This document shows positions 5,710 to 59,647 of a stretch of DNA of 64,000 nt, in pieces. Position 1 is the stretch's first letter, and every line of letters begins with the position of its first letter. Below the pieces are notes generated by a model that saw nothing but the letters and a program-made list of their open reading frames with translations, did not search any database and was not told the DNA's origin. A program made the position numbers and the translations under genes. The DNA is from an uncultured Thermoanaerobaculia bacterium (lineage in GTDB: Bacteria; Acidobacteriota; Thermoanaerobaculia; Thermoanaerobaculales; Sulfomarinibacteraceae): assembly GCA_964440565.1 (NCBI GenBank), contig CAYTTB010000004.1:33260-97259 (forward strand), written 5' to 3'.

Positions 5710-5739
5710 CCGCAGCCCGGGAGAGAGGAGGAGCGCACG

Positions 5740-17377: not shown

Positions 17378-19413
<2,036 letters not shown>

Positions 19414-19414
<1 letters not shown>

Positions 19415-21701: not shown

Positions 21702-21716
21702 CTCGCCTCGAGCTCC

Positions 21717-21791: not shown

Positions 21792-21845
21792 GGGCGGCGC
21801 GAAGTATACCTCAAGCGTGGCGCCGGCCGCCCGGTTCCGTCGCGG

Positions 21846-30730: not shown

Positions 30731-31243
30731 ATGCGACGCACCGTGATCCTGCTCGTGGCCCTCGCGACGGCGGCACCGGGGTTCGCCGGCTCCCCCGATG
30801 CCGACGCCATCGTGGGCCTGTGGCGCACCGCACCCGATCCGAAGGACGGTGCCGCCATCGTCGAGATCGTCCGTGACGGCGAGACCTTCGCGGGGCGCAT
30901 CGTCTGGCTCGAGAAGCCGCTCTACGGGCCCGACGAGGACCGTCCCGGCCAGCCGAAGGTGGACCTGAGGAACCCCGATCCGTCCCTGCGCGAGCGGCCG
31001 GTGCTCGGTCTCGAGCTGCTTCGGGGCTTCCGGTTCGACGGCCGCAAGTGGAAGGGGGGCACGATCTACGACCCGGCCAGCGGCACGACCTACCGGTGCG
31101 TGATGAAGCTGCTCGGCGCGGACCGCCTCAAGGTCCGCGGCTACGTGGGCATCTCCCTCCTGGGCCGCACCGAGGTCTGGACCCGGGTGCGCGAGATCCC
31201 GCGGGACGAGGGCGCCGCGCTGCCCCCCCGCGCCGGCGGGTGA
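30731..31243 (+). CDS. DUF2147-domain periplasmic protein
   Basis: GGAGG RBS. Signal peptide. IVGLWRT......AIVEI...G..F.GRIVWL...........D..NPD...R.RP..GL.....F......W.GG.IYDP..G.TY.C...L.....LKVRGY.G....GRT..W. Confidence 0.8.
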   Translation: MRRTVILLVALATAAPGFAGSPDADAIVGLWRTAPDPKDGAAIVEIVRDGETFAGRIVWLEKPLYGPDEDRPGQPKVDLRNPDPSLRERPVLGLELLRGFRFDGRKWKGGTIYDPASGTTYRCVMKLLGADRLKVRGYVGISLLGRTEVWTRVREIPRDEGAALPPRAGG

Positions 31244-31280
31244 GCGCCCGGGCGTTGCCCGGCCCTGCTACCATCCCGGG

Positions 31281-32444: not shown

Positions 32445-32471
32445 GCGGTCCGGCGGTATACTGCGGCCACC

Positions 32472-41697: not shown

Positions 41698-42426
41698 TCA
41701 GAACCGGAGGGCCGCGCTCAGGAACGCCGCGGTGGCCGAGCCGCGCCTGAGCTCGGCGCGGAGGCCGAGCAGCGGCAGACGCAGCGCGACCCCCACCGCG
41801 GCCACCGCCGTCGTCGCCTCGACCCGGTGGCGGAGGGGGTCCGGATCGCCCCAGCTGGCCTCGGCCTCCCACCGCCGGACGCCCAGGGCGCCGTAGGGAA
41901 CCAGCGGGCCCACGCCCTTGGAGACCGTCACCGTCACCGAGGTGGTGGTCAGGTCCACCGGTCCCGACCCGAGCTCCGACCACGCTGCACGCAGGCCGAC
42001 GGCGGGCACCAGCGTCGAGCCGCGGACCAGCGCCACGCGCCCCTCGAGGCCGTGGAACGTCTCCCCCGCGACCGACCCCACCGAGGCGCCCACGTCGAGC
42101 CCCAGCGGCAGCCCCTTGCGGACCGCCACCCGCACCCCCGCCAGGCCGCCGGCGGCGCGGCTCGCCCCCTCGAGGGTGCGCCGCCACCAGGGCGCGTCAC
42201 GGTCGCCACCCACCCACACCGCGCCCGCGTCCACCTCGAGGCCCATGACCCCCAGCGCCCGCGAGGGCCCGGCGGGCGGCGCGATGGCCTCGGCCAGGTG
42301 CTCCGCGAGCTCGCGAAACTCGCCCGGGCTCAGCGCCGGATCGAGGTGGAGGTCGCCCGCGTGCGCCCAGCCCGATCCCGCGACGATCGCCGCCACAACC
42401 GACAATGCCAGCACCCGTTCACGCAT
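41698..42426 (-). CDS. putative outer-membrane beta-barrel protein
   Basis: Signal peptide MRERVLALSVVAAIVAGSGWAHA. Alternating beta pattern. C-terminal ...AAFLSAALRF (terminal Phe). Overlaps the upstream GGDEF-EAL gene by 8 nt. Confidence 0.5.
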   Translation of the reverse strand: MRERVLALSVVAAIVAGSGWAHAGDLHLDPALSPGEFRELAEHLAEAIAPPAGPSRALGVMGLEVDAGAVWVGGDRDAPWWRRTLEGASRAAGGLAGVRVAVRKGLPLGLDVGASVGSVAGETFHGLEGRVALVRGSTLVPAVGLRAAWSELGSGPVDLTTTSVTVTVSKGVGPLVPYGALGVRRWEAEASWGDPDPLRHRVEATTAVAAVGVALRLPLLGLRAELRRGSATAAFLSAALRF

Positions 42427-44203: not shown

Positions 44204-45315
44204 GCGCCGGTCTCCCGGAACAGCGCCAGCACCGCCGTCTGGTTGTAGAACGCCGGGCGCCCGCTCACGGCCGGACCCACCTCCCCGAAGGTGAAGAACC
44301 CCGCGAGCGGCGCCTCACCCAGCGCCGTGGAGAGGGCGGCGGCCTCCTCCCCTGCCCGATCGCCCAGCACAAGCTCCCGCCCCACGCAGGAGAAGACCAC
44401 CGCAGCCTCGGGCCGGAAGGTGGGACGCACCCGCGCCGCCCCCCGCGCCAGCGAGCCACCGTCACCGATCCCGAGCCGCACGCGGTCGCCCTCCACCAGG
44501 TCTCCCCAGTAGGTCACCGCACCCGGCGGGCGGTCGAACCAGCGCATGCTCCGGTACAGCCCCCGCCGCTCCGGCCTCGGCCCGTCCACGATGAGCGGGA
44601 ACCGGTAGGCGGTCTCGGGCAGCGGCGCGAGCTCCCCGCCCACCGTGAACAGCGCCTCGTACCACCGCGTGGCCGGCTCCCCCTCGAGCTCGTAGAGGAC
44701 GTTGCCGGCGGCCTTGGTGACCGTGAACCTCGGCCCCGCGGGCTCCCACCCCCGCACGATCTCCACCGCCACCTCCACGCCCGAAAACCCCACCACCACC
44801 GCCCCCGCCTCCACCACGCCCCCGCCGGTGGCCACCCGGGCCAGCGGGACCTCGACCGGCTCCGCCTGGGAGGCGAGCCCGCCGGCGAGCCGGCCGCAGT
44901 CCACTCCCATGGCCCGGAGCCTGGCCAGGAACGCCTGGACCGGAAACCGGAGCCCGTCGGCCAGCAGGAGGGCACCCGAGGAGCGGCGGATCAGCGCCAC
45001 GGCCTCCCGCACGGAATCCAGGGCGAGAGGTTCACCGCGCCGGCCGGGGACCACCGCGATCTCCGCCGACCACCGCGAGCCCCGGGGCCCGAGGAGCAGC
45101 GCCACGCCGTCCCGCCGCAGATGGCTCCCAGCGAACTGGGTCACCGCCTCCACCGCCACCACCCGGCTCGCCGGCCACCGTGCCTCGAGCTCCGCCAGCC
45201 TCCCGTCCAGCTCGTGGCCGGGCGGGACGAAGGCCAGCACCAGCTCCGGCTCCACCTCCGACCCGGAGCCGCCGTCCCGCCCGAGCTCGGCCAGCGGCAC
45301 CACGGACCCTCGCAT
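44200..45315 (-). CDS. FIST (FIST_N + FIST_C) sensory-domain protein
   Basis: Last 371 aa of the artefactual ORF 44200..47076, from ATG (CAT 45313-45315). C-terminus AAVVFSCVGR...LAGFFTFGEVGP....PAFYNQTAVLALF is typical of FIST_C. Confidence 0.8.
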   Translation of the reverse strand: MRGSVVPLAELGRDGGSGSEVEPELVLAFVPPGHELDGRLAELEARWPASRVVAVEAVTQFAGSHLRRDGVALLLGPRGSRWSAEIAVVPGRRGEPLALDSVREAVALIRRSSGALLLADGLRFPVQAFLARLRAMGVDCGRLAGGLASQAEPVEVPLARVATGGGVVEAGAVVVGFSGVEVAVEIVRGWEPAGPRFTVTKAAGNVLYELEGEPATRWYEALFTVGGELAPLPETAYRFPLIVDGPRPERRGLYRSMRWFDRPPGAVTYWGDLVEGDRVRLGIGDGGSLARGAARVRPTFRPEAAVVFSCVGRELVLGDRAGEEAAALSTALGEAPLAGFFTFGEVGPAVSGRPAFYNQTAVLALFRETGA

Positions 45316-45501
45316 CCTCGCGACCCTCCCGAATCCCCCTCGGGGCAGGCTCCACCCTGTCTCGGGTACAGAGCGCCTCCACGATAGCCGCGCCCGGCGG
45401 GGTTTCGCAAGGCCCGAGGGCGTCCGAGATCCCCTATACTTGACCGCGATGAGCCTCGGCCGGGAAGCGCCGCGCGCGAGCCCCGGGGGACGGCCGGGCG
45501 C

Positions 45502-47757
45502 ATGAACGCCCGTTCCCGCCTCTGGCTCGCCGGAGCCGCCGCCCTCGCGGTGCTCGCCACCCTGGCGTGGGGACTCGGGGTGGAGTACCGGGCGAGCGCC
45601 CGCCAGCTCGGGTTCGCGATGCAGGAAGCGGGCGCGTGCACGGTCACCGCCGTGATGCCGCGCTCCCCCGCCGCCCGCGGAGGTCTGCGCACCGGAGACC
45701 GGATCGTCTCGGTGAACGGCGCGCCCGTCCGCTCCGTCCTCGACTACCAGCGGCTGGCACGGACGTTCCGCCGCGGGGTCCCGGTCCGCCTCGTCGTGGA
45801 GCGGGAGGGACGTCCGGTGGAGCTCCACATCCGGCCGGGGTACCCGTTCTGGACCGTGGGCAGGATCGCCACCGTGGTGGTGGTGCTGGCGTACCTCGCG
45901 CTCGCCGTCGCCTCGCTCCTCTACGGCGCGGGCGACCCGCGTGCCAGCCTGCTCTTCTGGTTCTCGGTCGCGGTGGCTCTCGAGATCGCGCTGCCCGATC
46001 TGCTGGTGGGCTTCCCGCGCGTCCAGGAAGGGGTCATCGTCGCGACGTTCCTGCTCAACGGGATCCAGGCCGGCATCGAGCTGCACCTCGCCTCGGTGGT
46101 GCCCGAGCCGCGGCCGGTGCTGCGCCGTCACCCGCGGCTGGTGCTCGGGTTCTACGCCGTGGGCGGCGGCATCGGCCTGGTGGGCGCGCTCACCGCCGTC
46201 TCCGAGTTCCGCGGCCTCGGCTGGTTCCCGTGGACCCTGCAGCAGGCCGCGTACGCGATCTTCGACGTGGGGTTCTTCCTCTGGGCCGCGGCGGTCTGCT
46301 TCCTCCTCTACCGGGGGGTGAGGACGGCCTCCACCCCGCGCGGGCGCCACCAGGCGCTGCTGATCCTCATGGGGGTGCTGCCGTGGGCGGTCCTGGCCAC
46401 CCTCTACTCCATCCTGGACCTCCTGGGCAGCGGGGCGCCGACCTGGATCTCCGCCGTGCAGCCGTACGTCCTGCTCGTCTACCCGGTCGCGGTGTTCGCG
46501 GCGATCTTCCGGTACGGTCTGTTCGACATCGAGGTCGTGGTCCGCCGTGGCCTCGCGTACGCGGGGGCCACCGCCCTGCTGCTCGCCGTGTTCTACGCGG
46601 TGCTCGGGACGGTGGGCGCCCTCCTCTCGCCACTGCTCGGGGAGCACGCCTCGATCTGGGTGTTCTCCTCTGCCGCGCTGGTCCTCGGCCTGCTCGCGAG
46701 CCCGCTGTACCGGCTGGTGCACCGGACGGTGGAGACCCGCTTCTTCCCCGAGCGGCGCGCGCTCCAGGAGCGGCTCGCGGACCTCGCCGACCGCCTGCCC
46801 GCCCTGGGCAGCCTCGAGGCGATGGGACGGCACCTCGTGCGCGAGCTGGCGCAGATCTTCCGCGTGGAGCCGGTGACCCTGATGCTCGCCGACACCGCCA
46901 GCGGGGTGCTCGGCGAGCTGGCGACCACGGACCGCCAGGAGGACCGGTTCGAGCGCTCCCTCCTGCTCGCCGCGGACGACCCCGGGATCGCCCGGCTCAA
47001 GCAGGCCCGCCGGCCGGCGCCGGTGCGGGAGCTCGTCCGGTACTCGGGCTCGCTCGCACAGCGGGCGCGCGACCACCGCGCCACCTACGTGGTCCCGCTA
47101 CTGAGCCGCGAGCGGCTCGTGGGTCTCGTGTTCCTCGGCGACCGCACCAACGGGGAGCCCCTGCGCCGCGAGGAGCTGGAGCTGCTCACCCTGTTCGGGC
47201 ACGGGCTCGCCTCGGTGCTGGAGAACGTGCGCCTCTTCCACTCGGCCACCTACGAGGGACTGACCGGCCTCCTGCGCCGGGAGGCCATCCTCGAGCGGCT
47301 CGGGGAGGAGCTCCAGCGCGCGGCGCGCTACGAGCGGCCGCTGTCGGTGGCCATGGCGGACCTCGACCACTTCAAGGAGGTCAACGATACCCACGGCCAC
47401 CTCACGGGCGACGCGCTGCTGAAGGCCGTGGCCCACCACCTCAAGTCGGAGCTGCGCTCGGCCGACGCCGTCGGCCGGTACGGGGGCGAGGAGTTCCTCA
47501 TCGTGCTCCCGGAGACGGATCTGGACGGCGCCCTGGCCGTGGCCGAGAAGATCCGGGAGCGCATCCAGACGCTGGAGGTGGTGGCGGAGGACGGGACGCG
47601 CGTACCCATCACGGTCTCCATCGGCGTGGCCACCGCCCCCCCGGCGAGCACGGCCGGGCTCCAGCCCCATCTCCTGATCGAGACGGCGGACCGCAACCTG
47701 CTCGAGGCGAAGCGGCTGGGCCGCAACCGCGTGATCGGGGGGCGCCTGCTGCCGTGA
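45502..47757 (+). CDS. PDZ / multi-TM / GAF / GGDEF diguanylate cyclase (GGEEF, RxxD I-site)
   Basis: PDZ (SPAARGGLRTGDRIVSVNGAPV). About 8 hydrophobic segments. GAF-like region. YEGLTGLLRR, MADLDHFKEVND, RSADAVGRYGGEEFLIVLPET. Confidence 0.85.
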   Translation: MNARSRLWLAGAAALAVLATLAWGLGVEYRASARQLGFAMQEAGACTVTAVMPRSPAARGGLRTGDRIVSVNGAPVRSVLDYQRLARTFRRGVPVRLVVEREGRPVELHIRPGYPFWTVGRIATVVVVLAYLALAVASLLYGAGDPRASLLFWFSVAVALEIALPDLLVGFPRVQEGVIVATFLLNGIQAGIELHLASVVPEPRPVLRRHPRLVLGFYAVGGGIGLVGALTAVSEFRGLGWFPWTLQQAAYAIFDVGFFLWAAAVCFLLYRGVRTASTPRGRHQALLILMGVLPWAVLATLYSILDLLGSGAPTWISAVQPYVLLVYPVAVFAAIFRYGLFDIEVVVRRGLAYAGATALLLAVFYAVLGTVGALLSPLLGEHASIWVFSSAALVLGLLASPLYRLVHRTVETRFFPERRALQERLADLADRLPALGSLEAMGRHLVRELAQIFRVEPVTLMLADTASGVLGELATTDRQEDRFERSLLLAADDPGIARLKQARRPAPVRELVRYSGSLAQRARDHRATYVVPLLSRERLVGLVFLGDRTNGEPLRREELELLTLFGHGLASVLENVRLFHSATYEGLTGLLRREAILERLGEELQRAARYERPLSVAMADLDHFKEVNDTHGHLTGDALLKAVAHHLKSELRSADAVGRYGGEEFLIVLPETDLDGALAVAEKIRERIQTLEVVAEDGTRVPITVSIGVATAPPASTAGLQPHLLIETADRNLLEAKRLGRNRVIGGRLLP

Positions 47758-47849: not shown

Positions 47850-48233
47850 ATGAACACCCTGGGAACGCACCTCATCGTCGACGCCTGGCAGGCCCCCCCT
47901 GACCTTCTCAACGACCCGGAGCACATCACGGCCGTTCTCAGACGGGCCGTGGCGGACGGTGGCGCGACCCTGATCGATCTCTGCGTCCACCAGTTCAGCC
48001 CCCACGGCGTGACCGCCACGGCGACCCTCGCCGAGTCGCACATCGCGATCCATACCTGGCCCGAGTACGGGTACTTCGCGGTGGATCTGTTCTTCTGCGG
48101 TGCCGGCGACGCGGACACGGCGCTCACGACGGTGCTCGAGGGAATGCGCGCCGGTCGCTCGCGCGCCACCCGCCTGGAGCGGGGGTTCCCCAAGGCCGTC
48201 CGGGTCGAGCAGCTCCTGCATGAGATCGCCTGA
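47850..48233 (+). CDS. speH: S-adenosylmethionine decarboxylase proenzyme (small bacterial SpeH/SpeD type)
   Basis: LGTHLIVDAW...TATATLAESHIAIHTWPEYGYFAVDLFFCG, with the ES self-cleavage site context. Start is ATG 47850 or GTG 47835. Confidence 0.85.
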   Translation: MNTLGTHLIVDAWQAPPDLLNDPEHITAVLRRAVADGGATLIDLCVHQFSPHGVTATATLAESHIAIHTWPEYGYFAVDLFFCGAGDADTALTTVLEGMRAGRSRATRLERGFPKAVRVEQLLHEIA

Positions 48234-49110
48234 GCCCGGGGACCTACCTGTCGGTGACGCGGACTGGTGGCTGGAGGCGCCGGACTCCAGCGGCGTCTGC
48301 CAGGCGCTGAAGGTGCGCCTCGTCCACCGGGAGCGCACGCCGTACCAGCGCCTCGCGGTCCTGGAGCATCGGCTGCTCGGCCGCATCCTCGTCCTGGACG
48401 ACGTGGTCCAGACCACGCAGGCGGACGAGTTCATCTACCACGAGATGCTCGTCCACGTGCCCCTGCTCGGCTCCACCGCGTGCACCAGGTCCGACGGCGC
48501 GGACGTGCTCATCGTGGGCGGTGGCGACGGCGGCACCCTCCGCGAGGTGCTCTCCCACGACTGGGTCCGCCGCGTGGTGATGGTGGAGATCGACGAGGCG
48601 GTGGTGCGCGCCTGCCGGGAGCACCTGCGCATCCACGGAGACTACGACGACCCCAGGGTGGAGCTGGTCATCGGCGACGGCGTGGCCTACGTCGCCTCGG
48701 ACGCAGCCCGCAGCCGCCCCTTCGACGTCATCCTGGTGGACTCCACCGACCCCGGGGGACCGTCGGAGCCGCTGTTCGGCGAGAGGTTCTGCCGCGACGC
48801 GCTGCGGTGCCTGAAGCCCGGCGGCGCGCTCGCGCGCCAGATGGGCGTCCCCTTCTACCAGCCGTTCCTCGCACCGGCGCTGGCGCAGATGCGCGAGGTC
48901 TTCGGCACGGTGGAGATCTACCGCGCCGCGGTTCCCACCTACATCGGCGGCGACATGGCGTTCCTGGTCAGCACCACGGACGGCTCCAGCTGCCGCCAGC
49001 CGCGCCGCGAGCACGTGGGCCGGTTCTACAACCCCGACGTCCACCGCGCCGCGTTCGCCGTTCCCACCTTCTGGACCCGCCCGGAGCTCGCCCCGCCCAC
49101 CGCGGAGTGA
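48220..49110 (+). CDS. speE: spermidine synthase (polyamine aminopropyltransferase)
   Basis: ATG 48220 inside ORF 48100..49110. TPYQRLAVLE, LVLDDVVQTTQADEFIYHEML, VLIVGGGDGGTLREV, VEIDEAVV, VILVDSTDPGGP. Confidence 0.9.
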   Translation: MRSPEPGDLPVGDADWWLEAPDSSGVCQALKVRLVHRERTPYQRLAVLEHRLLGRILVLDDVVQTTQADEFIYHEMLVHVPLLGSTACTRSDGADVLIVGGGDGGTLREVLSHDWVRRVVMVEIDEAVVRACREHLRIHGDYDDPRVELVIGDGVAYVASDAARSRPFDVILVDSTDPGGPSEPLFGERFCRDALRCLKPGGALARQMGVPFYQPFLAPALAQMREVFGTVEIYRAAVPTYIGGDMAFLVSTTDGSSCRQPRREHVGRFYNPDVHRAAFAVPTFWTRPELAPPTAE

Positions 49111-49113: not shown

Positions 49114-50502
49114 TCACTCCCCTTCCAGGACCACCGTCAGACCCCGCCGGCGGGCGCGAACCGTCGGCGAGGCGAGGTCGAGCACCACGAACAGCTCCGG
49201 CGGCCGGAACTCCCGGTGCAGCCCGACCCGGACCCTGAGGAGCTGCCGCGTCCCCACCGGGATCTCCGGCCGGGGGAACTCCCTGTCGATCCCGCGGATC
49301 CTGAGGAGGAGCCGGGGCGGGTCGTCGAGCCGGAGCGATCGGACCCTGCCGGCCCCGAGCGCACCCGCCGGCTGCACGGTCACGACGGTCGTCCGTCCCT
49401 GCCGGCGCCAGCGGATGGCGGCGACGGCCCGCGCGGGCCGAGGGGTGGGGCGTGGCGGCGCGGTCACGGCGGCGGTGGCGCGATCGGCGCGAGGCGTGGA
49501 GGGCACGGGCACCGTGGGCGAGGCCACGGGCGCCGCTCCGGAACGCCGGAGGGCCGTCGCCGTGCCCGGAGATGGCGAACCGGCGGTGCGAACCCAGATG
49601 GATCCGCCGGTACCCACCTCCATCGCCACGGTGGGTATGGCCGCGGGGGCCGCAGGCGGCATCGTGGGCGCCGCGACCCGCGATCCCCGCTCCGAGGCCC
49701 GCTGCCACCACCCGGCGAACCCCGCGATGGCGAGGACCACGGCGAGCGCCAGGCCCACGAGCGGAAGCGGCGAACCGCGGGGGGCACGCGGCCCGCCACC
49801 CGACGCCTCGGGCGGGAGCGGCCGCCCGAGGTCGGCCAGCGGATCTCCCGGCAGCTCGACAGCGGGCTCCAGCGGCGGGAGCGCCTCCGGCCCCGGCAGG
49901 CGATCGAGGACCTCCCCGGGCTCCTCGCCCCCGGCGGCACCGCCGCTCCCCGTCCCCTCCGTCTCCTGCGGCGCGGCGAACACCCGCTCCCCCGGGCTCT
50001 CGGCCGCGGGCTCCGCCGCCCGAGGCTCCTCGAACGGCTCCCCCCACCCCACCGTCACGGGACGCTCCCGCAGGCGCTCGGCCACGACCCGCCGCACCAG
50101 CTCCCGCCCCTCCCGGTCCAGCTCGACGAACCGGATTCCCATGCCCGGAGGACGTCCCAGCGCGTCCCCCGGCTCCCGACGCCACACCACCTCGCCCAGG
50201 CCGTGAAGCAGCGGCGAGCCGTCCCTCAGCCGGAAGGCGAAGCGAACTCGCGTCCCCACCGGCGGCGGTGCCGGGGAGCGCAGGAACATCCCACCCAGGG
50301 AGATGTCGCCCGCGTGCTGCTCGAGGAACTTCCCGAAGCTCTCCACCAGCACCTCGAGCTCGCCCGGTGCCGGGACCCGCACCTCCCGTCTCCGGCCGTC
50401 GCCGCCACCCTCGGCCACTCGCACCTCCCCCTCGCCATGATCGCACGACGTCCGGGCGGCGTCATCCCCGGCCGGGGCCCGGATCCCTCCCACGATCGCC
50501 AT
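49114..50502 (-). CDS. PilZ-domain protein with Pro-rich linker, TM and C-terminal AMIN-like domain
   Basis: RRREVRVPAPGELEV...GDISLGGMFLRS (PilZ RxxxR / D.S.GG). C-terminus TTVVTVQPAG...LDDPPRLLLRIRG...ELFVVLDL resembles AMIN. Confidence 0.7.
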   Translation of the reverse strand: MAIVGGIRAPAGDDAARTSCDHGEGEVRVAEGGGDGRRREVRVPAPGELEVLVESFGKFLEQHAGDISLGGMFLRSPAPPPVGTRVRFAFRLRDGSPLLHGLGEVVWRREPGDALGRPPGMGIRFVELDREGRELVRRVVAERLRERPVTVGWGEPFEEPRAAEPAAESPGERVFAAPQETEGTGSGGAAGGEEPGEVLDRLPGPEALPPLEPAVELPGDPLADLGRPLPPEASGGGPRAPRGSPLPLVGLALAVVLAIAGFAGWWQRASERGSRVAAPTMPPAAPAAIPTVAMEVGTGGSIWVRTAGSPSPGTATALRRSGAAPVASPTVPVPSTPRADRATAAVTAPPRPTPRPARAVAAIRWRRQGRTTVVTVQPAGALGAGRVRSLRLDDPPRLLLRIRGIDREFPRPEIPVGTRQLLRVRVGLHREFRPPELFVVLDLASPTVRARRRGLTVVLEGE

Positions 50503-50888: not shown

Positions 50889-53018
50889 ATGGACCGGGCA
50901 GGCGGGAGCGGTACCCGTGGCGACCTGCTCCGGCTCGGCTTCGCCGCCGCGGTGGCGCAGTCGGTGCTGGTGCGCGAGGGGATGAGCGCCTTCGCCGGCT
51001 CGGAGCTCGCCTGGGGGCTGGTGCTCGCCACCTGGCTCCTGGGGATGGCGCTCGGCGCCCGCGCCGGGGCGGCCGCTCGCGGAGGGCGGAACGCGGCGGC
51101 GGCGCCGGCCGCGGTGATCCTCCTCGCCGCGGCGGGCACGGTCCTGCTCCGGGCGGTGCCCGCCCTCGCCGCGGGTGTCGCCGGCGAGACCGCTCCGGGG
51201 TGGCGGGTGGCGTGGGCGTGGGTGGTGGCGGTGCTCCCCGCCGCCGCGGCCGGCGGGTGGGCGTTCCCGCACCTCGCCGGGCGGCTCGCCTCGGGCCCCG
51301 GCGGGGCGTACGCGCTCGACGCCGCCGGCGGGCTCGCCGGGGGCCTCGCCTTCACCTTCCTCCTCGCTCCGCACGGCTCCGCGGCGGCCCTCGCCGCGGC
51401 CCTGGGGCTCGTCCTGTCCAGCCGCTGGCTCGGCCGCCCTCTGCTGGCCCTGGCCATCCTCGCCCTCGCGCTGGCCGCCGCACGCCCGGCGGGCGAGGTG
51501 CTGGCGGCCGCCACCTGGAGGTGGTCCCGCCATCCCGGAGCGCTCGCCGCCTGGGCGGAGACCCGCCACCAGCGGCTCGAGCTGGCGGCATCGGAGCCGC
51601 GCGCGGTGTACGCCGACGGCCGCCTTCTGGCCACGGCGCCGGATCCGTGGCTCGCGGCCGTCCGGGGCCATCTGCTGGCCCTCCTCCATCCGGACCCGCG
51701 GCGGGTGCTGGCAGCGGGCGGACTGGTCCGCGGGGTCGTCCCCGCCCTGCTCCGACACCCGCTGGAGCGGCTCGACCTGGTGGAGGAGGATCCCCGCCTG
51801 GTGGAGCTGCTGCCCCGCTGGCTGGACGGGGGCCTCGCGACCACGGTGCGCGACCCGCGCGTGCGCCTCCACCGGGAGCCCGTCGCGCTCCTCTCCGGCC
51901 GCGGGCGCTGGGACCTCATCCTCCTGCTGGGCCCGGACCCGGCGTCGCTCAGGGCCAACCGCACGCGCACGGAGGAGCTCCTCCGCCGATGCCGGGAGCA
52001 CCTCGCTCCCGGCGGGCGGGTGGTGGTCCGGGTCGGGGCCCCCGACACGTACCTGGGCGGCCCGGGGGGGCGTCTCCTGGCGACCCTGTACGCCACCGTG
52101 CGGGCGGTGTTCCCCCACGTGACCGCCCTCCCCGGCGAGGCCGTGCTCCTGGTGGCGGGCGCGGAGCCCGTCGCGGACGCGGCCGACCCCGCGGCGCTCG
52201 CCGCCCGCTGGCGCGCGCGCGGCATGGCGGACCCGGTGTTCGCGCCCGAGCTGCTCCCCACGCTGGTCGAGCCCTCCCGCCAGCGCGCGCTCCAGCGCTG
52301 GCTCGAGGCGCACCCCGGTCCGCCCAACCGTGCCGCCCACCCCACCGCCCTGCTGCCCGCGTCGGCTCGGGCCGAGGGCCGGGGGGCCACCAGGGTCGCC
52401 GCCGCGCTCTCCCGCCTGGAGCGGGTGCGTCCCGCCACGCTGGCCCTGGTCCTCGCCGCCGCGGCCGCCGGCGTGGCGGCCCTGGCGCTGGCCCGCCGTG
52501 CCGCCGCCGGTGCCGCAGCGATGCTCGGGGTGGGGTTCGCGGGGATGGTGTGGTACCTCGCCGGTCTCGCCGCCTGGCAGTCGCTGCGAGGCGCGGTGTA
52601 CGCCGAGATCGGGGCGCTCTCGGCGGCGTTCATGGCCGGCACCGTGGCCGGCGCCGCGCTCTCCCACCGCTGGCGGGCGCCCGAGCGGCGCCTCCCCTGG
52701 GCGCTGGCTGCCGGCGTCGCCGTCTCCGCGGCCCTCGCGGCGGGCGTCCCCTTCGCCACCCCCTGGGCCGTCCCGCCGCTGCTCGTCGCCGCGGGGATCG
52801 TGCCGGGTGTCGCCTTCGCCGGCGCGGCGCGGCTCGTGGACCCGGAAAGGGCCCGGCGCGCCGCGGCCGGGGGGTTCGCCGCCGACGAGGCGGGCGCCGC
52901 CGTGGGCGCCCTGGTCACCGTCCCCCTCATCGCCCTCGTCGGCGTGCCCGCCGTCGCCGCGGCCGCGGCGACGCTGCTGCTGGCCGCTCTGCCCGGCACC
53001 TCCCGCCACGGCCGGTGA
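50889..53018 (+). CDS. polytopic membrane protein fused to a spermidine-synthase-like (class I MTase fold) domain
   Basis: 709 aa. About 7 N-terminal and about 5 C-terminal hydrophobic segments flank RVLAAGGLVRGVVPALL...LDLVEEDPRLVELL...WDLILLLGPDP...LAPGGRVVV. Confidence 0.7.
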   Translation: MDRAGGSGTRGDLLRLGFAAAVAQSVLVREGMSAFAGSELAWGLVLATWLLGMALGARAGAAARGGRNAAAAPAAVILLAAAGTVLLRAVPALAAGVAGETAPGWRVAWAWVVAVLPAAAAGGWAFPHLAGRLASGPGGAYALDAAGGLAGGLAFTFLLAPHGSAAALAAALGLVLSSRWLGRPLLALAILALALAAARPAGEVLAAATWRWSRHPGALAAWAETRHQRLELAASEPRAVYADGRLLATAPDPWLAAVRGHLLALLHPDPRRVLAAGGLVRGVVPALLRHPLERLDLVEEDPRLVELLPRWLDGGLATTVRDPRVRLHREPVALLSGRGRWDLILLLGPDPASLRANRTRTEELLRRCREHLAPGGRVVVRVGAPDTYLGGPGGRLLATLYATVRAVFPHVTALPGEAVLLVAGAEPVADAADPAALAARWRARGMADPVFAPELLPTLVEPSRQRALQRWLEAHPGPPNRAAHPTALLPASARAEGRGATRVAAALSRLERVRPATLALVLAAAAAGVAALALARRAAAGAAAMLGVGFAGMVWYLAGLAAWQSLRGAVYAEIGALSAAFMAGTVAGAALSHRWRAPERRLPWALAAGVAVSAALAAGVPFATPWAVPPLLVAAGIVPGVAFAGAARLVDPERARRAAAGGFAADEAGAAVGALVTVPLIALVGVPAVAAAAATLLLAALPGTSRHGR

Positions 53019-53426: not shown

Positions 53427-54563
53427 TCACTCCCACACGCCGGGGATCTCCCGGCCGCAGTCGGGGCAGCGGCCCCGCTCGAGCCGGTTGGCGAGGATCG
53501 CGTACCCCATCCGGCGCACCAGCAGCGCGCCGCAGCCCGGGCACCGGGTGCTCTCGCCCGGGTGCCCCGGCACGTTGCCCACGTAGACGAAGTGCAGCCC
53601 CTCGGCCTGGCCGATCCTCCACGCCCGCTCGAGGGTCGCCACGGGGGTCGGGGGGAGGTCGGTGAGCCGGTAGGTGGGATGGAACCGGGTGAAGTGCACC
53701 GGGACCTCCGGCCCGAGGTTGGCCCGCACCCACCGGCACAGGTCGCGGATCTCCTGCTCGCCGTCGTTGAGCGTGGGGATCAACAGGACCACGATCTCGA
53801 GCCAGACACCCGCGGCGCGAACCCGCTCCAGCGTCTCGAGCACCGGCTTGAGGTGCCCCCGCACCACCTCGCGGTAGAACCGCTCGCGGAACGCCTTGAG
53901 GTCCACCTTGTACGCGTCCAGCAGCGGCAGCACGTCACGGAGCGGCCGCTCCTGGATGTACCCGTTGCTCACCACCACCGAGCGCACCCGCCGCTTCCGC
54001 GCCGCACGCGAGACGTCCCGCACGTACTCCCAGAAGATCGAGGGCTCCGAGTACGTCGCCGCCACCACCGGGATCCCCCGATCCGCGGCGAGCGCCGCCA
54101 TCGCCTCCGGGGGCAGCCAGTAGGCCGGCACCTGCTCCGGGCGGAACTGGGAGATCTCCCAGTTCTGGCAGAACTTGCACTCGACGTTGCAGCCGGCGGT
54201 GGCGTACGAGAGCGCCTGGGCTCCCGGCAGCACGTGGAAGAACGGCTTCTTCTCGATGGGATCCACGTGCAGCGCGCACACCACCCCGTGCACCAGCGTG
54301 TGGTAGGTGCCGCCGCGGTTCTCGCGCGCCCCGCAGCTGCCCCGCTCGCGGTCGGCCACGGTGCAACCGCGCGGGCACAGCCCGCACTCCACCCGCTTCC
54401 CCTCGAGCCTGCGGTACCACGACGCCTCGCGGGCCGGCAGCTCCTCGACGGGAATCTCGCGCCCCACCTCGAGGCGGGCCTCGGCGCGCCGGGCCCAGCA
54501 CGCGGCCATCGCCGCCGCGCCGCCCAGCGCCAGCACCTCGCGCCGGCCGAGCTTCCGGCTCAC
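53427..54563 (-). CDS. amrS: AmmeMemoRadiSam system radical SAM enzyme (AmrS) with twin-arginine-like N-terminal extension
   Basis: GTG 54563 (GTGA overlap). N-terminus VSRKLGRREVLALGGAAAMAA. VECGLCPRGC...GSCGAR, radical SAM CNVECKFCQNWEIS, C-terminal ribbon RCPGCG...RCPDCG. Confidence 0.85.
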   Translation of the reverse strand: MSRKLGRREVLALGGAAAMAACWARRAEARLEVGREIPVEELPAREASWYRRLEGKRVECGLCPRGCTVADRERGSCGARENRGGTYHTLVHGVVCALHVDPIEKKPFFHVLPGAQALSYATAGCNVECKFCQNWEISQFRPEQVPAYWLPPEAMAALAADRGIPVVAATYSEPSIFWEYVRDVSRAARKRRVRSVVVSNGYIQERPLRDVLPLLDAYKVDLKAFRERFYREVVRGHLKPVLETLERVRAAGVWLEIVVLLIPTLNDGEQEIRDLCRWVRANLGPEVPVHFTRFHPTYRLTDLPPTPVATLERAWRIGQAEGLHFVYVGNVPGHPGESTRCPGCGALLVRRMGYAILANRLERGRCPDCGREIPGVWE

Positions 54564-55504
54564 GCCCGTACCTCCCGGATCCGCGCCGGATCTCCCTCGC
54601 CCAGCCCGTACCGGGACGCGGTGGCGAGCCACCGCGGCGGCCGCTTCGCCTCGGCGAGCGTGGGAAGGCCCCGCCGCCTCCGCTCCGCCTCGATCACCCG
54701 CCACGCCCACGCGTCGGCCGCCACCGGGTCCAGCGACGCCGCCACCAGCCCGAGCCGCCAGGTCGCGCCGGGGCGGTACGCCGGGCCGCCGTCGCACTGC
54801 GCCGTTCCGCCGTCGAGGATCGTGAGCCGGAGCTTGTCCCGGATCACCGGGTGGCGCACCACGTCGGCCACGTACGGATCGCAGTTGTCGTCGTGGTACT
54901 TGTTCGGGTTGTGGATCACGCCGTACCAGTTCTTGAGCCCCGCCGACACCCCGGCGAGGTCGTGGTCCTTGACCACGCCGAAGGAGATCAGCACCGTGGC
55001 CACCTCGGTCACCACCCGGGCGTACAGCGAGCCGATGGCGCCCGAGGTGCGGATGCGCCGGTCGTAGTCGCCGTCGATCCCCACGCACCGGAACGGGCCA
55101 CCCCCGCGCCCCACCGGGTATCGCGCGCGCCGCAGCTCCCGGCTCGACCGCTCGAACACCACGATGCGCGCGGGTGGCACGCCGGCCTCCGCGAGGAGCT
55201 CCGCCAGCGCCGCCACCAGCTGCACGCGCGGCGACAGCCGTGGCCCGGCCAGGCAGTTGACCTTGATCCCCACCACGTCCTCCGGGCCCGCCAGGCGCCG
55301 GAGCGCCGCGACGGCGTCGCGTGCCCCGGCCGCCGCCGCGATCGCCCCCGCCACGGCCCGCCGCGCCGCCGCCGCGTCGAGGCGGAGCCCCGCCGGCACC
55401 CGTGCCACGCCCACCCGCCCCCGTGCGCCGGGTCGGGCCGCCCCCAGCGCCGCCCCCGCGCCGAGCAGCGCCACGAGCTCCCGCCGCGAGAGCTTCCCGC
55501 TCAC
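54560..55504 (-). CDS. DUF362-domain protein with twin-arginine signal
   Basis: GTG 55504 (GTGA overlap). VSGKLSRRELVALLGAGAALGAA. VGIKVNCLAG...VVKDHDLAGVSAGLKNWYG...DPVAADAWAWRVIE. Confidence 0.8.
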   Translation of the reverse strand: MSGKLSRRELVALLGAGAALGAARPGARGRVGVARVPAGLRLDAAAARRAVAGAIAAAAGARDAVAALRRLAGPEDVVGIKVNCLAGPRLSPRVQLVAALAELLAEAGVPPARIVVFERSSRELRRARYPVGRGGGPFRCVGIDGDYDRRIRTSGAIGSLYARVVTEVATVLISFGVVKDHDLAGVSAGLKNWYGVIHNPNKYHDDNCDPYVADVVRHPVIRDKLRLTILDGGTAQCDGGPAYRPGATWRLGLVAASLDPVAADAWAWRVIEAERRRRGLPTLAEAKRPPRWLATASRYGLGEGDPARIREVRA

Positions 55505-57018
55505 GGCCCCTCCCCGAACACCTGCGCCGTGAACACCTCGAGGCGCGCCCCGTGCCGCCACGCGCCGGGGTCGAGCCCGGCCTTGAGGGACAGACGCGAC
55601 AGGAACGTCGGAAGATCCCAGCCGGTCTCCGTGGCGACCTGGGGGAGGAAGACCGCCCGGTGCCCGCCCTTGGTCAGCACCACCCCGTGCACGCCGAGCC
55701 GGATCGCCTGCGGCCCCGGCACCCTGCGTGGCGGCGAGAGCACCGACACCTCCACCCGCACGTCGTCCAGCTCGTCCGGGGTGAGCTCCGGGAACCTCGG
55801 GTCGTGCGCGGCCATCACCGCCGACCGCACCACCTCCTCCGGAAGCGGCGAGGTGCCCACGATGGAGCCCATGCACGCCCTGAGATCCTCGCCCGCGGAC
55901 GCGCCCCGCCGCCTGAGCGTCACGAAGGCACCCGCCACGGCGGCCAGGTTCCCCTCCACCCGGTGGGCCGCGAACCACTCCGCCAGCTCCGGCCCGTGCC
56001 CGAGGTGGGTCTCGAGCGCCGCCCTCGCCAGCGCGAGCAGCGCCGCCCTCTCCGTCGCCGAGAGGCGTCCAAGCCGCGGTGGGGGCGGATCGTCGCGCCA
56101 CGCCGTCCACCGGCCCGAGAACGTCGCCGACACGTAGGTCACCACCCGCTCCCAGTCGCCGGTCACGTGACCCGAGGTGGTCACCTCCCCCACCGCCCCC
56201 GTCCCCTCGAAGGCGTGCGCCGCGAGCTCGGACAGCACCAGCAGGGGGTGCGCCCCGCACACCGTGTCCTCCGAGGCCAGCACCTGCATCCAGAACCCCG
56301 CGGGGTCCGGCGCCACCACCCGTCCCGCCGTGACGCGCGCGAGCCGCACCAGCCGCTCACCCAGGCCCCGGCGCGGGAACGGTGCGTAGCCGTACCCCTT
56401 CCCGTGGTGGGTGAAGTCGGACGACGCGAGCACCACCGTGCCGGGGCCGAGCAGCGGAACGAGCGCCCGCGCGATCGCCCGCGCCTCCCCGCGGTCGGTG
56501 CGCGGTCCCACCAGGACCGGGACGATGCGCACGGCGCCCATCGCCTCCCGGATCAGCGGCAGCTCCACCTCCAGGCTGTGCTCCCTCTCGTGCGCCGCGG
56601 CCGGGCCGTCGAAATAGGGCCTTCCCCTGAGCCGCTCGAGCGCCGCGCGATCGAGCGGCAGGTTCCCCAGCGGGGTGGCGAAGGCGTCGAGCCCCCCGGC
56701 GGGCAGCGCCGCGCCGGCGAACGCCATCCGGTGCGAGGGACCGAGCAGGATCACCCGGTCCGGCCGTGCCGCGGCGAGCGCCCGGATCGAGCGCGCCGCC
56801 AGCCGCCCCGAGAACGCCCACCCCGCGTGGGGCGCGATCGCGGCCACCGCCGGCGGCTGCTCGCCCGCCGCCTCGAGCAGGCGCCGCGCCTCGGCCCGCG
56901 CCGTCTCCGGGTCGGCGGGGTAGAACCCGCCCGCCACCGCCGGCGGGCGAACTCCCGCCGCGGCGGTCGCCCCCGCGGCCAGGACCGCTGCCACCATCGC
57001 GCCCCGCACGCGTCCCAC
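55501..57018 (-). CDS. fused Memo-like (AmrB) / AMMECR1 (AmrA) protein with N-terminal signal-like segment
   Basis: Memo part: AGGFYPADP...IAPHAGWAFSG...ILLGPSHR...SSDFTHHG. AMMECR1 part: GAFVTLRRRG...LRACMGSIVG...AAHDPRFPELTPDELDDVRVEVSVLSPP...FLPQVATETGWD. Start is ambiguous among 56997 ATG, 57009 or 57018 GTG, and 57150 ATG. Confidence 0.8.
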   Translation of the reverse strand: MGRVRGAMVAAVLAAGATAAAGVRPPAVAGGFYPADPETARAEARRLLEAAGEQPPAVAAIAPHAGWAFSGRLAARSIRALAAARPDRVILLGPSHRMAFAGAALPAGGLDAFATPLGNLPLDRAALERLRGRPYFDGPAAAHEREHSLEVELPLIREAMGAVRIVPVLVGPRTDRGEARAIARALVPLLGPGTVVLASSDFTHHGKGYGYAPFPRRGLGERLVRLARVTAGRVVAPDPAGFWMQVLASEDTVCGAHPLLVLSELAAHAFEGTGAVGEVTTSGHVTGDWERVVTYVSATFSGRWTAWRDDPPPPRLGRLSATERAALLALARAALETHLGHGPELAEWFAAHRVEGNLAAVAGAFVTLRRRGASAGEDLRACMGSIVGTSPLPEEVVRSAVMAAHDPRFPELTPDELDDVRVEVSVLSPPRRVPGPQAIRLGVHGVVLTKGGHRAVFLPQVATETGWDLPTFLSRLSLKAGLDPGAWRHGARLEVFTAQVFGEGP

Positions 57019-57146: not shown

Positions 57147-58631
57147 TCATCCGCGCTCCGCCGGGCCCAGCAGCATCCGGTTGAGGGGGTCGCGGGTCTC
57201 GCCCACCGAGCTCACGCGGATGGCGGCCCGCTCGCCCACCGGGCAGCGGTGCTCGCAGATGCCGCAGCCCACGCACCGCCCGGGGTCCACGTGCGGCCGC
57301 CGCACCCGCACCCGCCGGCCCCCGTGCGTCGGCACCTCCACCTCCTCCAGCCAGATCGCCTTCGGGGAGGTGGGGCACATCTCCTCGCACACGATGCACG
57401 GCGTGGCCATCGCCCACGGCAGGCAGCGGCCGCGGTCGATGAAGGCGGTGCCGATGCGGACCGGCTGGCCGCCGTCGAGCCCCAGCTTGCGCGCCGGCTC
57501 CAGCCGCTCGATGGCGCCGGTGGGGCACACCTCGCCGCACCGGGTGCAGGCGTACTCGCACCATCCGCGGCGCATGTCGAGCCTCGGGGTCCAGAACCCC
57601 TCGACCCCCGCCTCGCCCACGGCGGGCCGGATCACGCCGGTGGGGCAGACCAGCTGGCAGAGGGAGCACTTCACGCACCGCTTCAGGAATTCGGGCTCGG
57701 GGAGCGACCCGGGCGGCCGGATCAGCTCCGCGCGGAGCGCCGTCCGGCCGCCGCCGGTGGCCTCCAGGATCGGCGCCGCGATCAGGCCCAGCAGCACCGA
57801 CCCCACCACCCGCCGCCGGCCCACGTCCACCGGCACCCGCTCCGGCAGCGGGGGCAGGAACCGGTAGGCGATGGCCCCCTCGGGGCACGGGTCCACGCAC
57901 TCGAGGCAGACCATGCACTCCCCCACCCGGTGCTCGCCGAGCGGCTCGTCCGCCCCCTGGCAGGCGAAGGTGCACAGGGTGCAGGTGGAGCAGGCGTCGC
58001 CCGACCGGTGGATGCGGAAGAGCGCCAGCCGGGCGAACACCCCCAGCAGGGCACCGAGCGGGCACAGCGCCCGGCAGAACACCCTCGGGATCCACCGGCT
58101 CGCCAGGACGATCGCGAGCAGGAACCCGGCCGCCAGCCACCCCCCCGGCACGGGGCCCCGGCCGGGTGCCACGGCCGCCAGTGCCCCGATCCCCCGCGCG
58201 AGGGCCGACAGCGGATCGAGGAGCCCGGTCTGGAGCGAGCCCATGGCCGCCGCCGCGAGCAGGAACGCCAGCACCAGGTACTTGCTCCGGTACCACGGCC
58301 GCCACCGGTTCGCCTCCCGGCTCTCCCGCCGCGAGCGCGGCGCGAGCAGGCGGCTGGCGAGCTCCTGCACCGTCCCCAGCGGGCAGATCCAGCCGCAGAA
58401 CACCCGCCCGAACACCACCGTGAGGGCGACGATCGCCAGCGCCCAGGCGAGCGCGGCGGGGAGGCGGCGCGCGGCCAGCCCCACACCCACCATCGCCAGC
58501 GGGTCGGCGTGGTGGAAGGCGGCGAAGGGGAGGTCGCGCGGGTCGCCCGCGAGCGCCCGCACCGCGAGCCAGACGAACAGGACCAGGAAGAACGCCTGGT
58601 AGACGATCCGCACCCGCCGGAACCAGGTCAT
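57147..58631 (-). CDS. membrane-bound polyferredoxin (NapH/NosR-like CX3CP TM region plus about six 4Fe-4S Cys motifs)
   Basis: ATG 58631 (ATGA overlap). FCGWICPLG and FCRALCPLG in the TM region. CSTCTLCTFAC, CMVCLECVDPCP, CVKCSLCQLVCP, CTRCGEVCP, CIVCEEMCP, CVGCGICEHRCP. Confidence 0.8.
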   Translation of the reverse strand: MTWFRRVRIVYQAFFLVLFVWLAVRALAGDPRDLPFAAFHHADPLAMVGVGLAARRLPAALAWALAIVALTVVFGRVFCGWICPLGTVQELASRLLAPRSRRESREANRWRPWYRSKYLVLAFLLAAAAMGSLQTGLLDPLSALARGIGALAAVAPGRGPVPGGWLAAGFLLAIVLASRWIPRVFCRALCPLGALLGVFARLALFRIHRSGDACSTCTLCTFACQGADEPLGEHRVGECMVCLECVDPCPEGAIAYRFLPPLPERVPVDVGRRRVVGSVLLGLIAAPILEATGGGRTALRAELIRPPGSLPEPEFLKRCVKCSLCQLVCPTGVIRPAVGEAGVEGFWTPRLDMRRGWCEYACTRCGEVCPTGAIERLEPARKLGLDGGQPVRIGTAFIDRGRCLPWAMATPCIVCEEMCPTSPKAIWLEEVEVPTHGGRRVRVRRPHVDPGRCVGCGICEHRCPVGERAAIRVSSVGETRDPLNRMLLGPAERG

Positions 58632-59647
58632 GCCGTCCCCAGCTCCTCCACCAGGTGCGGGTCGGCGTGTCCCAGTCCCCGCCGCTCGGCCTCGACCAGG
58701 AAGCCGAGGCGTCCGGGATCGAGACCCAGCAGCGCCGCCCCCCAGGCGTCGCACGCCACCGGGTCGGTGCCCGCCGCCACCGCGTCCATCCGGCGGACGT
58801 CCGCCAGCCGCCCTCCCTGCGGGCCGCCCGCCACCAGGATCCGGGTCGCGTCCACCACCGTGAGCGTGGGCCGGAAGGTGGCGGCGAGCTCGGCGATGCT
58901 CCGGTGGATGTCCTGGTGGAGGCGGGGACGGCCCGGGCCCAGGACACCGAACCAGTTCTTCATCCCCAGCGTGGCCCGCGACAGCGAGTGGTGCTTCACC
59001 ACCGGCACGTTGATCACCCGGTCCGCCTCGAGCAGCTCCCGCATCACGGAAAGCCCCGCGGCCCGCCCGCCCACGGCGGCGGGCACCAGCTCCAGCGCGG
59101 CACCGTACCGCACCTCGGCCCCGGCGGCCCGGGCCGCCGCCTCGATCCCCGAGCGGCCGAAGGCGCGCCGGGGGTCGTTGCACGACAGGTCGGCCACCAC
59201 CACCCGCCGCGCCCCGGCGGCGAGGCAGAGACGGACCAGCTCCCCCACCACCTCGGGGTTCGTGTCGGCGGCCTGCTCCGGCAGGCGGTCCCAGCCGACG
59301 TTGGGCTTGATCAGCACGGTCTCGCCGGGGCGAACGAAGCGCTCCATCCCGCCGAGGGCGGCCACCGCCCGCCGCACGTTGGCGGCGGGGTCCGAGCCCC
59401 GAGCCGCCACCGCGCGCACCGGCGCGCCGGACGTCCGCCAGTCGGGCACCGGCCGCGGCGCGGTCCCGCGCGGGCCGCGCCGCACCAGCCACGCCACCCC
59501 GCCGGCCGTGGCCCCGATCGCCGCCGCCGCGGCCGCGAGCCTCGCCACCGCCTCGCGGCGGCTCACCGGGGGCGGGTACGGCGCGTGCCCGCCGGAGCCG
59601 CCGTCCCGCTGCGAGCGCCGCCTCGCCACCGACACCTCCCGCCCCAT
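58628..59647 (-). CDS. DUF362-domain protein with twin-arginine-like signal (paralog of 54560..55504)
   Basis: VSRREAVARLAAAAAAIGA. VLIKPNVGW...VVKHHSLSRATLGMKNWFG...DPVACDAWGAALLG. GGAGGGGG RBS. Confidence 0.8.
   Translation of the reverse strand: MGREVSVARRRSQRDGGSGGHAPYPPPVSRREAVARLAAAAAAIGATAGGVAWLVRRGPRGTAPRPVPDWRTSGAPVRAVAARGSDPAANVRRAVAALGGMERFVRPGETVLIKPNVGWDRLPEQAADTNPEVVGELVRLCLAAGARRVVVADLSCNDPRRAFGRSGIEAAARAAGAEVRYGAALELVPAAVGGRAAGLSVMRELLEADRVINVPVVKHHSLSRATLGMKNWFGVLGPGRPRLHQDIHRSIAELAATFRPTLTVVDATRILVAGGPQGGRLADVRRMDAVAAGTDPVACDAWGAALLGLDPGRLGFLVEAERRGLGHADPHLVEELGTA

Follow-up and report, generated by a model that had tools for sequence, protein, structure and literature searches.

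A stretch of 64,000 nucleotides from an uncultured Thermoanaerobaculia bacterium (GenBank assembly GCA_964440565.1, contig CAYTTB010000004.1, positions 33,260 to 97,259; called the window below) encodes AmrS, the radical S-adenosylmethionine (SAM) enzyme of an AmmeMemoRadiSam system, with a leader that, as read from the sequence, is a real and conserved signal of the twin-arginine translocation (Tat) type. We consider it probable that AmrS is loaded with its iron–sulfur (Fe-S) clusters and then exported by Tat as part of an AmmeMemoRadiSam system located outside the cytoplasm. This reading draws on the anatomy of the enzyme, the conservation of its leader, the signal types of its partners, which suit their cofactor status, the association of the genes and the retention of the module across phyla. 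The genomic context is the strongest evidence that the export is real. On the minus strand, AmrS is encoded in a tight five-gene operon that runs in the order DUF362-2, membrane polyferredoxin, Memo-AMMECR1, DUF362-1 and AmrS, and all three AmmeMemoRadiSam families score above their curated cutoffs within this one operon.

AmrS (378 aa; 53427..54563, minus strand) was recognised by both TIGR04337 and Pfam Radical_SAM, the former with 368.9 bits against a cutoff of 220. The TIGR04337 match covers residues 48–378, leaving residues 1–47 as an N-terminal extension ahead of the core. The gene starts with GTG (54563-54561), which shares a GTGA overlap with the TGA stop codon (54562-54560) of DUF362-1, and sequence reading places a Shine-Dalgarno sequence, GGGAGG (54571..54576, minus strand), 7 nt before this GTG. 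The protein begins V/M-SRKLGRREVLALGGAAAMAACWARRAEARLEVG; the N-termini of AmrS and of both DUF362 proteins are exactly those given in a preliminary description of this DNA, and the GTG starts of AmrS and DUF362-1 in GTGA overlaps, also described there, are confirmed. Sequence reading together with homologue conservation predicts a Tat signal peptide in residues 1–28 (54480..54563, minus strand). Its n-region, SRKLG, is followed by the twin arginine R7-R8 (54540-54545), and the motif G-R-R-E-V-L (residues 6–11) fits Z-R-R-x-hydrophobic-hydrophobic. The h-region, VLALGGAAAMAACWA, consists of 15 uncharged residues, the best 12-residue Kyte-Doolittle mean of the leader being 1.97, and the c-region is basic, RRAEA|R with A-x-A, and passes into a short linker. 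Cleavage after A28 (AEA|R) is possible; A-x-A occurs in 64 of 116 AmrS homologues, which is weak evidence for a peptidase site because these leaders are Ala-rich.

The leader is maintained throughout the close relatives of AmrS. In the best 120 of 7,996 homologues (66–78% identical, mostly 377–385 aa), the twin arginine and an uncharged stretch stand at the same position in 117, the three exceptions being truncated gene calls. The consensus reads M-S-x-x-L-[DST]-R-R-x-h, followed by an Ala-rich h-region, often P-R-P-A-D-A-A, a Pro-rich linker and ELPAREASWY. This conservation bears on the alternative of a mis-called start, in which the true start would be the internal Met (MAACWARR...) or a later codon, the leader being an untranslated segment kept open by high GC content. 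The window has 74.7% GC, and long spurious extensions of open reading frames (ORFs) are common in it. However, the twin arginine and h-region recur in these 117 homologues and also in distant phyla whose genomes are low in GC, the GTG combines a strong Shine-Dalgarno sequence at 7 nt with the GTGA overlap, and initiation at Met19 would cut the hydrophobic stretch down to a stub. The preliminary description had held that its proposal would fall if the conserved start lay at or after the internal Met; since 117 of 120 close homologues have the leader in place, the conserved start lies ahead of it and the leader is no chance upstream extension, as that description had argued. A mis-called start is scarcely credible and, judged by these comparisons, effectively refuted.

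More distant relatives, 37–57% identical to AmrS, were collected from among 1.84 billion representatives clustered at 50% identity. Many have textbook Tat leaders (DRRRFLKVCGLSALAAG, SRRDFIKKLLVG, TRREFLQQAAAW, SRRNFIAGCGLG, NRRQFLGVTAAS and SRRDFIRTAGAG), further examples being SRRDFIKKLL and TRREFLQQAA, and canonical S/T-R-R-x-F-[LI]-K leaders are present on AmrS from many phyla. Many other relatives are 330–350 aa long, have no leader and begin M-[KR]-E-A right at the core. Sorting of 123 near-full-length AmrS cores gave 68 leaderless, 27 Tat-type, 4 hydrophobic-leader, 14 fusion and 10 unclear proteins, and leader status was coherent within clades (nearest-neighbour concordance 91/99 versus a null mean of 56). 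At the chosen thresholds, no core residues specific to exported-type or cytoplasmic-type AmrS were found. We also scanned species-representative genomes and took the best 80 of at least 600 stretches, a set that is biased toward the query and is no census; together with earlier loci and the window itself it makes up 84 loci. The phyla represented are Acidobacteriota, Desulfobacterota-like 'delta proteobacteria', Planctomycetota, Verrucomicrobiota, Zixibacteria, KSB1, Poribacteria, Eisenbacteria, Omnitrophota and others. About 55 of these query-biased loci have a Tat-type AmrS leader, 19 a very hydrophobic one and 8 none, with 2 unclassed. The counts of 27 in 123 cores and about 55 in 84 query-biased loci, spread over many phyla, bear on the question raised earlier of how common twin-arginine leaders are in the TIGR04337 family.

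The very hydrophobic AmrS leaders (L026, L029, L033, L037, L043, L052, L054, L060, L066, L083 and others) come from Omnitrophota, Elusimicrobia, WOR-3 and similar groups; they resemble signals of the general secretory (Sec) pathway or anchors, have best 12-residue Kyte-Doolittle means of 2.6–3.7, and have KR, RK or no basic pair in the place of RR. In L051, L057, L062, L063, L064 and L071, a longer N-terminal segment comes after the Tat signal, and CxxCP is replaced in the first AmrS Cys motif by CxxCH, the motif known for haem c attachment. Fusions were also seen: a NapH-like polyferredoxin is joined directly to AmrS in P0136, a membrane domain with CxxxC in its first helix precedes AmrS in P0133 and P0155, and a hydrophobic leader is followed by Memo-AMMECR1-AmrS in P0178 and by AmrS-Memo-AMMECR1 in P0149. 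Leaderless AmrS-AMMECR1-Memo triple fusions are numerous, with representatives of about 1000–1150 aa such as P0171 and P0174.

The core of AmrS contains the radical SAM motif CX3CX2C as CNVECKFC (C125, C129 and C132); its pattern CNxxCxFC is invariant in the homologue alignment, as is E173 of the TYxEP segment. Further conserved cysteines lie N-terminally (C60, C63, C67 and C77) and C-terminally (including C341, C344 and C366), and the radical SAM, N-terminal and C-terminal motifs are invariant in leadered and leaderless AmrS alike. By these motifs AmrS is a bona fide radical SAM enzyme, with SAM cleavage itself predicted, and its cysteines would bind Fe-S clusters, making it a passenger that needs cofactor loading in the cytoplasm. 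The closest solved structure is that of pyruvate formate-lyase (PFL) activating enzyme (PDB 3c8f/3cb8, E=5e-5, residues 114–280), which belongs to the same radical SAM subclass. However, PFL activating enzyme is cytoplasmic, has neither a leader nor the N-terminal 4-Cys and C-terminal CxxC...CxxC motifs, and targets a protein glycine.

Two genes upstream of AmrS lies a fusion of Memo and AMMECR1 (AmrB-AmrA; 55501..57018, minus strand), which scored 198.6 bits with TIGR04336 and 141.3 bits with TIGR04335. A hydrophobic stretch, AMVAAVLAAGATAAAG (about 56953-57018, minus strand), stands directly ahead of the Memo domain. The start of the gene is ambiguous, with GTG 57018 or 57009, ATG 56997 and ATG 57150 as candidates; a start at ATG 57150, which lies in an ATGA overlap, would make the n-region 50 residues long, and the other three would each yield a short signal resembling the orthologous ones. 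The sister loci L001–L004 keep the gene order Memo+AMMECR1, DUF362, AmrS, with the pair of DUF362 and polyferredoxin present as well in L003. Orthologous Memo-AMMECR1 leaders are short and of the classical Sec or lipoprotein type (MKPLLLVSLLALAAFAAAEV in L002 and MKSLLLLSLLCVAINGWA in L004), with lipobox-like ends in other loci (...LVAC, ...IAGSC and ...LVNAC); the L003 orthologue was apparently truncated within the hydrophobic region by the gene caller. By an automated rule, 20 of 25 Tat-type loci have such a Sec- or lipoprotein-type leader on Memo-AMMECR1, and 2 of the 5 misses are artefacts. These leaders are also clearly more hydrophobic than those of Tat-type AmrS (median best 12-residue Kyte-Doolittle values of 2.72 versus 1.88, p=6e-10), and in paired comparison within loci the Memo-AMMECR1 leader exceeded the AmrS leader in 23 of 27 cases (p=4e-4). 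Sec for the cofactor-free Memo-AMMECR1 and Tat for the Fe-S enzyme AmrS and for DUF362 would be the split expected of an extracytoplasmic system.

DUF362-1 (314 aa; 54560..55504, minus strand; Pfam DUF362, 77.3 bits) starts with GTG 55504, which shares a GTGA with the stop codon of Memo-AMMECR1, and is itself translationally coupled to AmrS through the GTGA overlap described above. Its N-terminus is VSGKLSRRELVALLGAGAALGAARPG, and a Tat-type leader, VSGKLSRRELVALLGAGAALGAA, is located at about 55433-55504. DUF362-2 (58628..59566, minus strand; Pfam DUF362, 165.5 bits), with the leader VSRREAVARLAAAAAAIGATAGGVAWLVRRGPRG, contains VSRREAVARLAAAAAAIGA from GTG 59566, an upstream ATG at 59647 being the alternative start; it shares an ATGA overlap with the polyferredoxin start and has orthologous leaders in L005–L007. 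Both scores exceed the Pfam gathering threshold of 24. The DUF362 family (PF04015) conserves K, K-x-H, K-N and three Asp and has no conserved Cys, and it is placed in Pfam clan CL0471 with the LarA N-terminal domain (PMC11770544). A DUF362 protein with a Tat leader is encoded immediately upstream of AmrS in 24 related loci, and among the fetched loci a Tat-signal DUF362 was present in 25 Tat-type loci versus 0 of 29 with a hydrophobic leader or none. The two DUF362 leaders of the window differ in style: DUF362-2 and its orthologues show a long hydrophobic stretch and then a strongly basic segment (WLVRRGPRG, WLRRRSRK), which reads more like an uncleaved anchor.

The preliminary description had also taken the AmrS leader to be paralogous to that of DUF362-1. 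Such a specific relation, whether it came from duplication, from gene conversion or from selection for a common receptor, would agree with the identity of the two leaders at 11 of their first 16 residues and at 38 of 48 nucleotides in the window, and with the higher mean score of same-locus over cross-locus pairs in the 16 loci that have both leaders (10.2 versus 5.4, permutation p=0.026). However, the same-locus excess is gone once the close clade is removed (p=0.23), and the AmrS leader of the window scores 31 against its own DUF362 neighbour versus 34 and 30 against DUF362 leaders of other genomes. The n-regions of the two leaders also differ in the sister loci L001–L004, as with VSLDRRRF versus MTRRWTRREL in L002. 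The nucleotide identity of 38/48 was rejected as a sign of common origin because 75% GC and a shared codon bias inflate it. The paralogy is therefore not borne out and a specific relation between the two leaders is very unlikely; they are as alike as any two Tat signals of an Ala/Gly-rich, high-GC clade would be.

Between DUF362-2 and Memo-AMMECR1, the operon encodes a membrane polyferredoxin (57147..58631, minus strand; Pfam Fer4_5 and Fer4_7) with a NapH-like half of four transmembrane (TM) helices and a NapG-like half with four [4Fe-4S] clusters. The Cys map and hydropathy give the NapH-like half two CX3CP motifs and two clusters. With 98.2 bits for NapH/MauN against a cutoff of 213, and 85.7 bits for NapG against 269, the protein falls below both equivalog cutoffs; by these scores it is like NapH and NapG at the domain level and a member of neither equivalog. 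Between its two halves, residues 270–296 (57744..57824, minus strand) form an internal twin-arginine and hydrophobic helix, GRRRVVGSVLLGLIAAPILEA, which is kept in L003, L006 and L007. This helix looks like a retained NapG Tat signal that would serve as a fifth TM helix and place the NapG-like half outside; if so, the polyferredoxin would be inserted by Sec and Tat in combination. Actinobacterial Rieske proteins, which are polytopic Fe-S proteins, are inserted by Sec and Tat through an internal twin-arginine helix, and the polyferredoxin shares with them an internal RRR and hydrophobic helix before the last Fe-S domain. Unlike the Rieske proteins, it is a NapH-like/NapG-like fusion, and its topology is predicted from sequence. 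Tat-integrated membrane Fe-S proteins are covered in PMC10924467.

Convergent with AmrS, a gene on the plus strand (50889..53018) encodes a polytopic membrane protein of 709 aa with a central Rossmann domain like that of spermidine synthase, of the kind for SAM or decarboxylated SAM, as indicated by matches to NF002010 (E=2.6e-11), NF002956 (E=1.3e-9) and PF01564 (E=1e-4). Unbiased clustering of all neighbouring ORFs, from which antisense and off-frame shadows of AmrS and Memo were discarded, brought out this SpeE-like membrane protein as a partner: within the fetched neighbourhood of up to 8 kb it is present near AmrS in 45 of 84 loci from several phyla and in 0 of 5 truly cytoplasmic-type loci. 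Other than this protein, no conserved transporter was found among the AmrS neighbours. We regard the protein as a candidate extra component of the AmrS system. A crude analysis of hydropathy and the positive-inside rule gives a modal number of six TM helices and a probably cytoplasmic Rossmann domain, a result too coarse for firm conclusions. The idea that the protein exposes a SAM-binding domain to the periplasm was dropped accordingly.

We infer the translocation, cleavage site, electron route and SAM source of the AmrS system as follows. AmrS would fold and gain its [4Fe-4S] clusters in the cytoplasm, where the Tat translocase would recognise it via R7-R8 and the subsequent V-L. It would cross the inner membrane folded, probably to be cleaved near AEA|R, or else to stay tethered by its leader. 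Outside, it would work with Memo-AMMECR1, exported by Sec or as a lipoprotein, and with the Tat-exported DUF362 protein, and would draw reducing power from the NapH/NapG-like polyferredoxin, whose internal twin-arginine helix would set the NapG-like half on the same side. As for SAM, the most economical guess is that it is bound before export and then acts as a regenerated cofactor or supports few turnovers. The glucose-fructose oxidoreductase of Zymomonas mobilis, reportedly a Tat substrate exported with tightly bound NADP, would provide a precedent for exporting an enzyme together with its bound nucleotide cofactor, which is then regenerated on site; however, its NADP(H) cycles undestroyed, whereas the PFL-activase-type relatives of AmrS consume SAM. 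We propose only tentatively, and with somewhat less than even confidence, that many diderm phyla have a complete radical SAM pathway outside the cytoplasm, in which AmrS, possibly SAM-loaded and reduced via the polyferredoxin and DUF362, acts with Sec-exported Memo-AMMECR1 on an envelope or membrane substrate. Such a pathway, if real, would be the first case of radical SAM chemistry outside the cytoplasm, and in it SAM would be either a captive regenerated cofactor or supplied by a so far undescribed route across the inner membrane.

Several points weigh against an exported, cluster-loaded AmrS that works outside. We know of no SAM pool or SAM exporter outside the cytoplasm, and PFL-activase-like enzymes consume SAM as a co-substrate. 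The SAM paradox of an exported radical SAM enzyme, noted in the preliminary description, is real and broader than stated there, as canonical S/T-RRxFLK leaders occur in many phyla. About 19 loci have a Sec-like leader on AmrS, an Fe-S enzyme that Sec export would not serve; an Fe-S enzyme is unable to mature after Sec export. Leaderless AmrS stands beside lipoprotein-like Memo-AMMECR1 in L067, L073 and L077, and Tat-type AmrS beside leaderless AMMECR1 or Memo in L032, L034 and L046, where the leaderless partners might be exported as hitch-hikers. Scans of 55-residue N-termini with the Tat-signal models of Pfam and NCBIfam gave no match; the Escherichia coli TorA leader, a positive control for Pfam only and with no counterpart for NCBIfam, likewise gave none, so the Pfam result is uninformative. 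No tat genes were found among ten scanned ORFs (the five housekeeping and three GGDEF genes described below, 23696-25843 and 50889-53018), and no search was aimed at tatA/tatC in the genome.

One alternative is that AmrS acts first and is exported later, with its SAM chemistry confined to the cytoplasm and little or no catalysis outside. Its targets would be, for example, the co-translated DUF362, AmrS itself or a small molecule; it would leave the cytoplasm alone or within a complex, and the leader might mainly carry hitch-hiker partners. SAM and low-potential reductants are indeed cytoplasmic, AmrS is nearest to protein-activating enzymes (PFL activating enzyme in PDB and glycyl-radical activase matches in NCBIfam), and DUF362 and AmrS are translationally coupled. 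The three loci with Tat-type AmrS beside a leaderless AMMECR1 or Memo fit co-export on one signal, a known Tat mode according to PMC10924467. We also count in favour of this order of events the system described in PMC13128918, whose effector functions in the periplasm and is matured by a radical SAM enzyme. However, Memo-AMMECR1 usually has its own Sec-type leader and would therefore cross unfolded and meet AmrS only outside, and DUF362 bears its own Tat signal and therefore has no need of hitch-hiking. Moreover, the periplasm-facing half of the polyferredoxin would be purposeless without redox chemistry outside, and there is no apparent reason for so many phyla to export a spent enzyme. On balance, we consider cytoplasmic action followed by export unlikely.

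The leader might instead never be translocated, tethering AmrS to the cytoplasmic face near the polyferredoxin and the SpeE-like protein, or be a vestigial chaperone-binding Tat motif as in NarG, with catalysis in the cytoplasm in either case. This would remove the SAM paradox, and it would suit the roughly 19 loci with plain hydrophobic N-terminal helices in place of twin-arginine leaders, the several representatives in which AmrS is fused to membrane domains, and the SpeE-like neighbour, given the probable cytoplasmic location of its Rossmann domain. However, a simple anchor needs no S/T-R-R-x-F-L-K consensus across phyla. The h-regions are weakly hydrophobic (median 1.88) and lead into basic or A-x-A c-regions and a Pro-rich linker, features that would suit a cleavable Tat signal better than a stable TM helix. 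In addition, the classical cleavable Sec and lipoprotein signals of the partners place these across the membrane. NarG has a vestigial, degenerate Tat motif, performs cytoplasmic chemistry and has partner subunits without export signals; it shares a Tat-like N-terminus with AmrS, but the AmrS motif is canonical in many lineages and its partners carry Sec or lipoprotein signals. An anchor or remnant is thus quite unlikely, and export of cluster-loaded AmrS by Tat is the reading that we prefer.

Set against the canonical cytoplasmic AmmeMemoRadiSam system (TIGR04337, TIGR04336 and TIGR04335), the operon has all three families and the same radical SAM and auxiliary Cys motifs. It differs in the 47-residue Tat-type leader of AmrS and the signal-like N-terminus of Memo-AMMECR1, and in the addition of two Tat-signal DUF362 genes, the membrane polyferredoxin and the SpeE-like membrane protein; the leaderless relatives begin at the core, and DUF362 is present in none of the fetched leaderless loci. 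AMMECR1 had been assigned by comparative work to RNA base modification, a cytoplasmic role (PMC2034487). Known Tat-exported Fe-S proteins, such as NapG, hydrogenase small subunits and DmsA/B-type complexes, have the same Z-R-R-x-h-h motif and mild h-region as AmrS, with a basic or A-x-A c-region that AmrS may share, and likewise combine a cytoplasm-loaded Fe-S passenger with a NapH-like membrane partner. However, those passengers only transfer electrons, whereas AmrS needs SAM, a consumable nucleoside cofactor that is not known outside the cytoplasm. The cytoplasm holds SAM, the machinery that assembles Fe-S clusters and the low-potential reductants, and for this reason radical SAM enzymes are taken to be confined to it. 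Full-text literature searches on AmmeMemoRadiSam and on radical SAM with Tat or periplasm returned no paper on an exported radical SAM enzyme, although automated database flags may well exist. Memo-AMMECR1 contexts were reportedly described by Burroughs et al. in 2019 (JBC, the Journal of Biological Chemistry).

Proof of catalysis outside the cytoplasm would make the AmrS system categorically new. Within one radical SAM family, a large and phylogenetically coherent branch bears canonical Tat signals, together with matching partner signals and a membrane module suited to electron supply, and this offers a concrete and cheaply testable case for radical SAM chemistry taken outside the cell membrane. 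It bears on the long-open function of Memo and AMMECR1, conserved proteins linked to human disease: a periplasmic or lipoprotein Memo-AMMECR1 would argue for an envelope or membrane substrate, not RNA, in these lineages. It also points to DUF362, the polyferredoxin and the SpeE-like membrane protein as potential new obligatory partners.

Apart from the operon and the SpeE-like membrane protein, the neighbourhood is dense in genes of cyclic di-GMP signalling (32445-34364, 42419-44314, 45388-47757 and 49114-50502). Three of the encoded proteins contain GGDEF domains, one of them also with EAL and PAS and another with PDZ and GAF. The product of 49114-50502 was called PilZ by synteny with L001 only, a locus in which PilZ and PDZ-GGDEF genes lie beside AmrS, and a canonical SpeE-like gene (48013-49110) adjoins it. 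The remaining annotated genes are housekeeping genes at 3-1058, 5710-8277, 17378-19603, 20754-21845 and 31107-32444, with an AcrB-family fragment, a heavy-metal P-type ATPase with YHS and HMBD domains, an H+-pyrophosphatase, a phosphoribosyl pyrophosphate (PRPP) synthetase and RNase D as their products.

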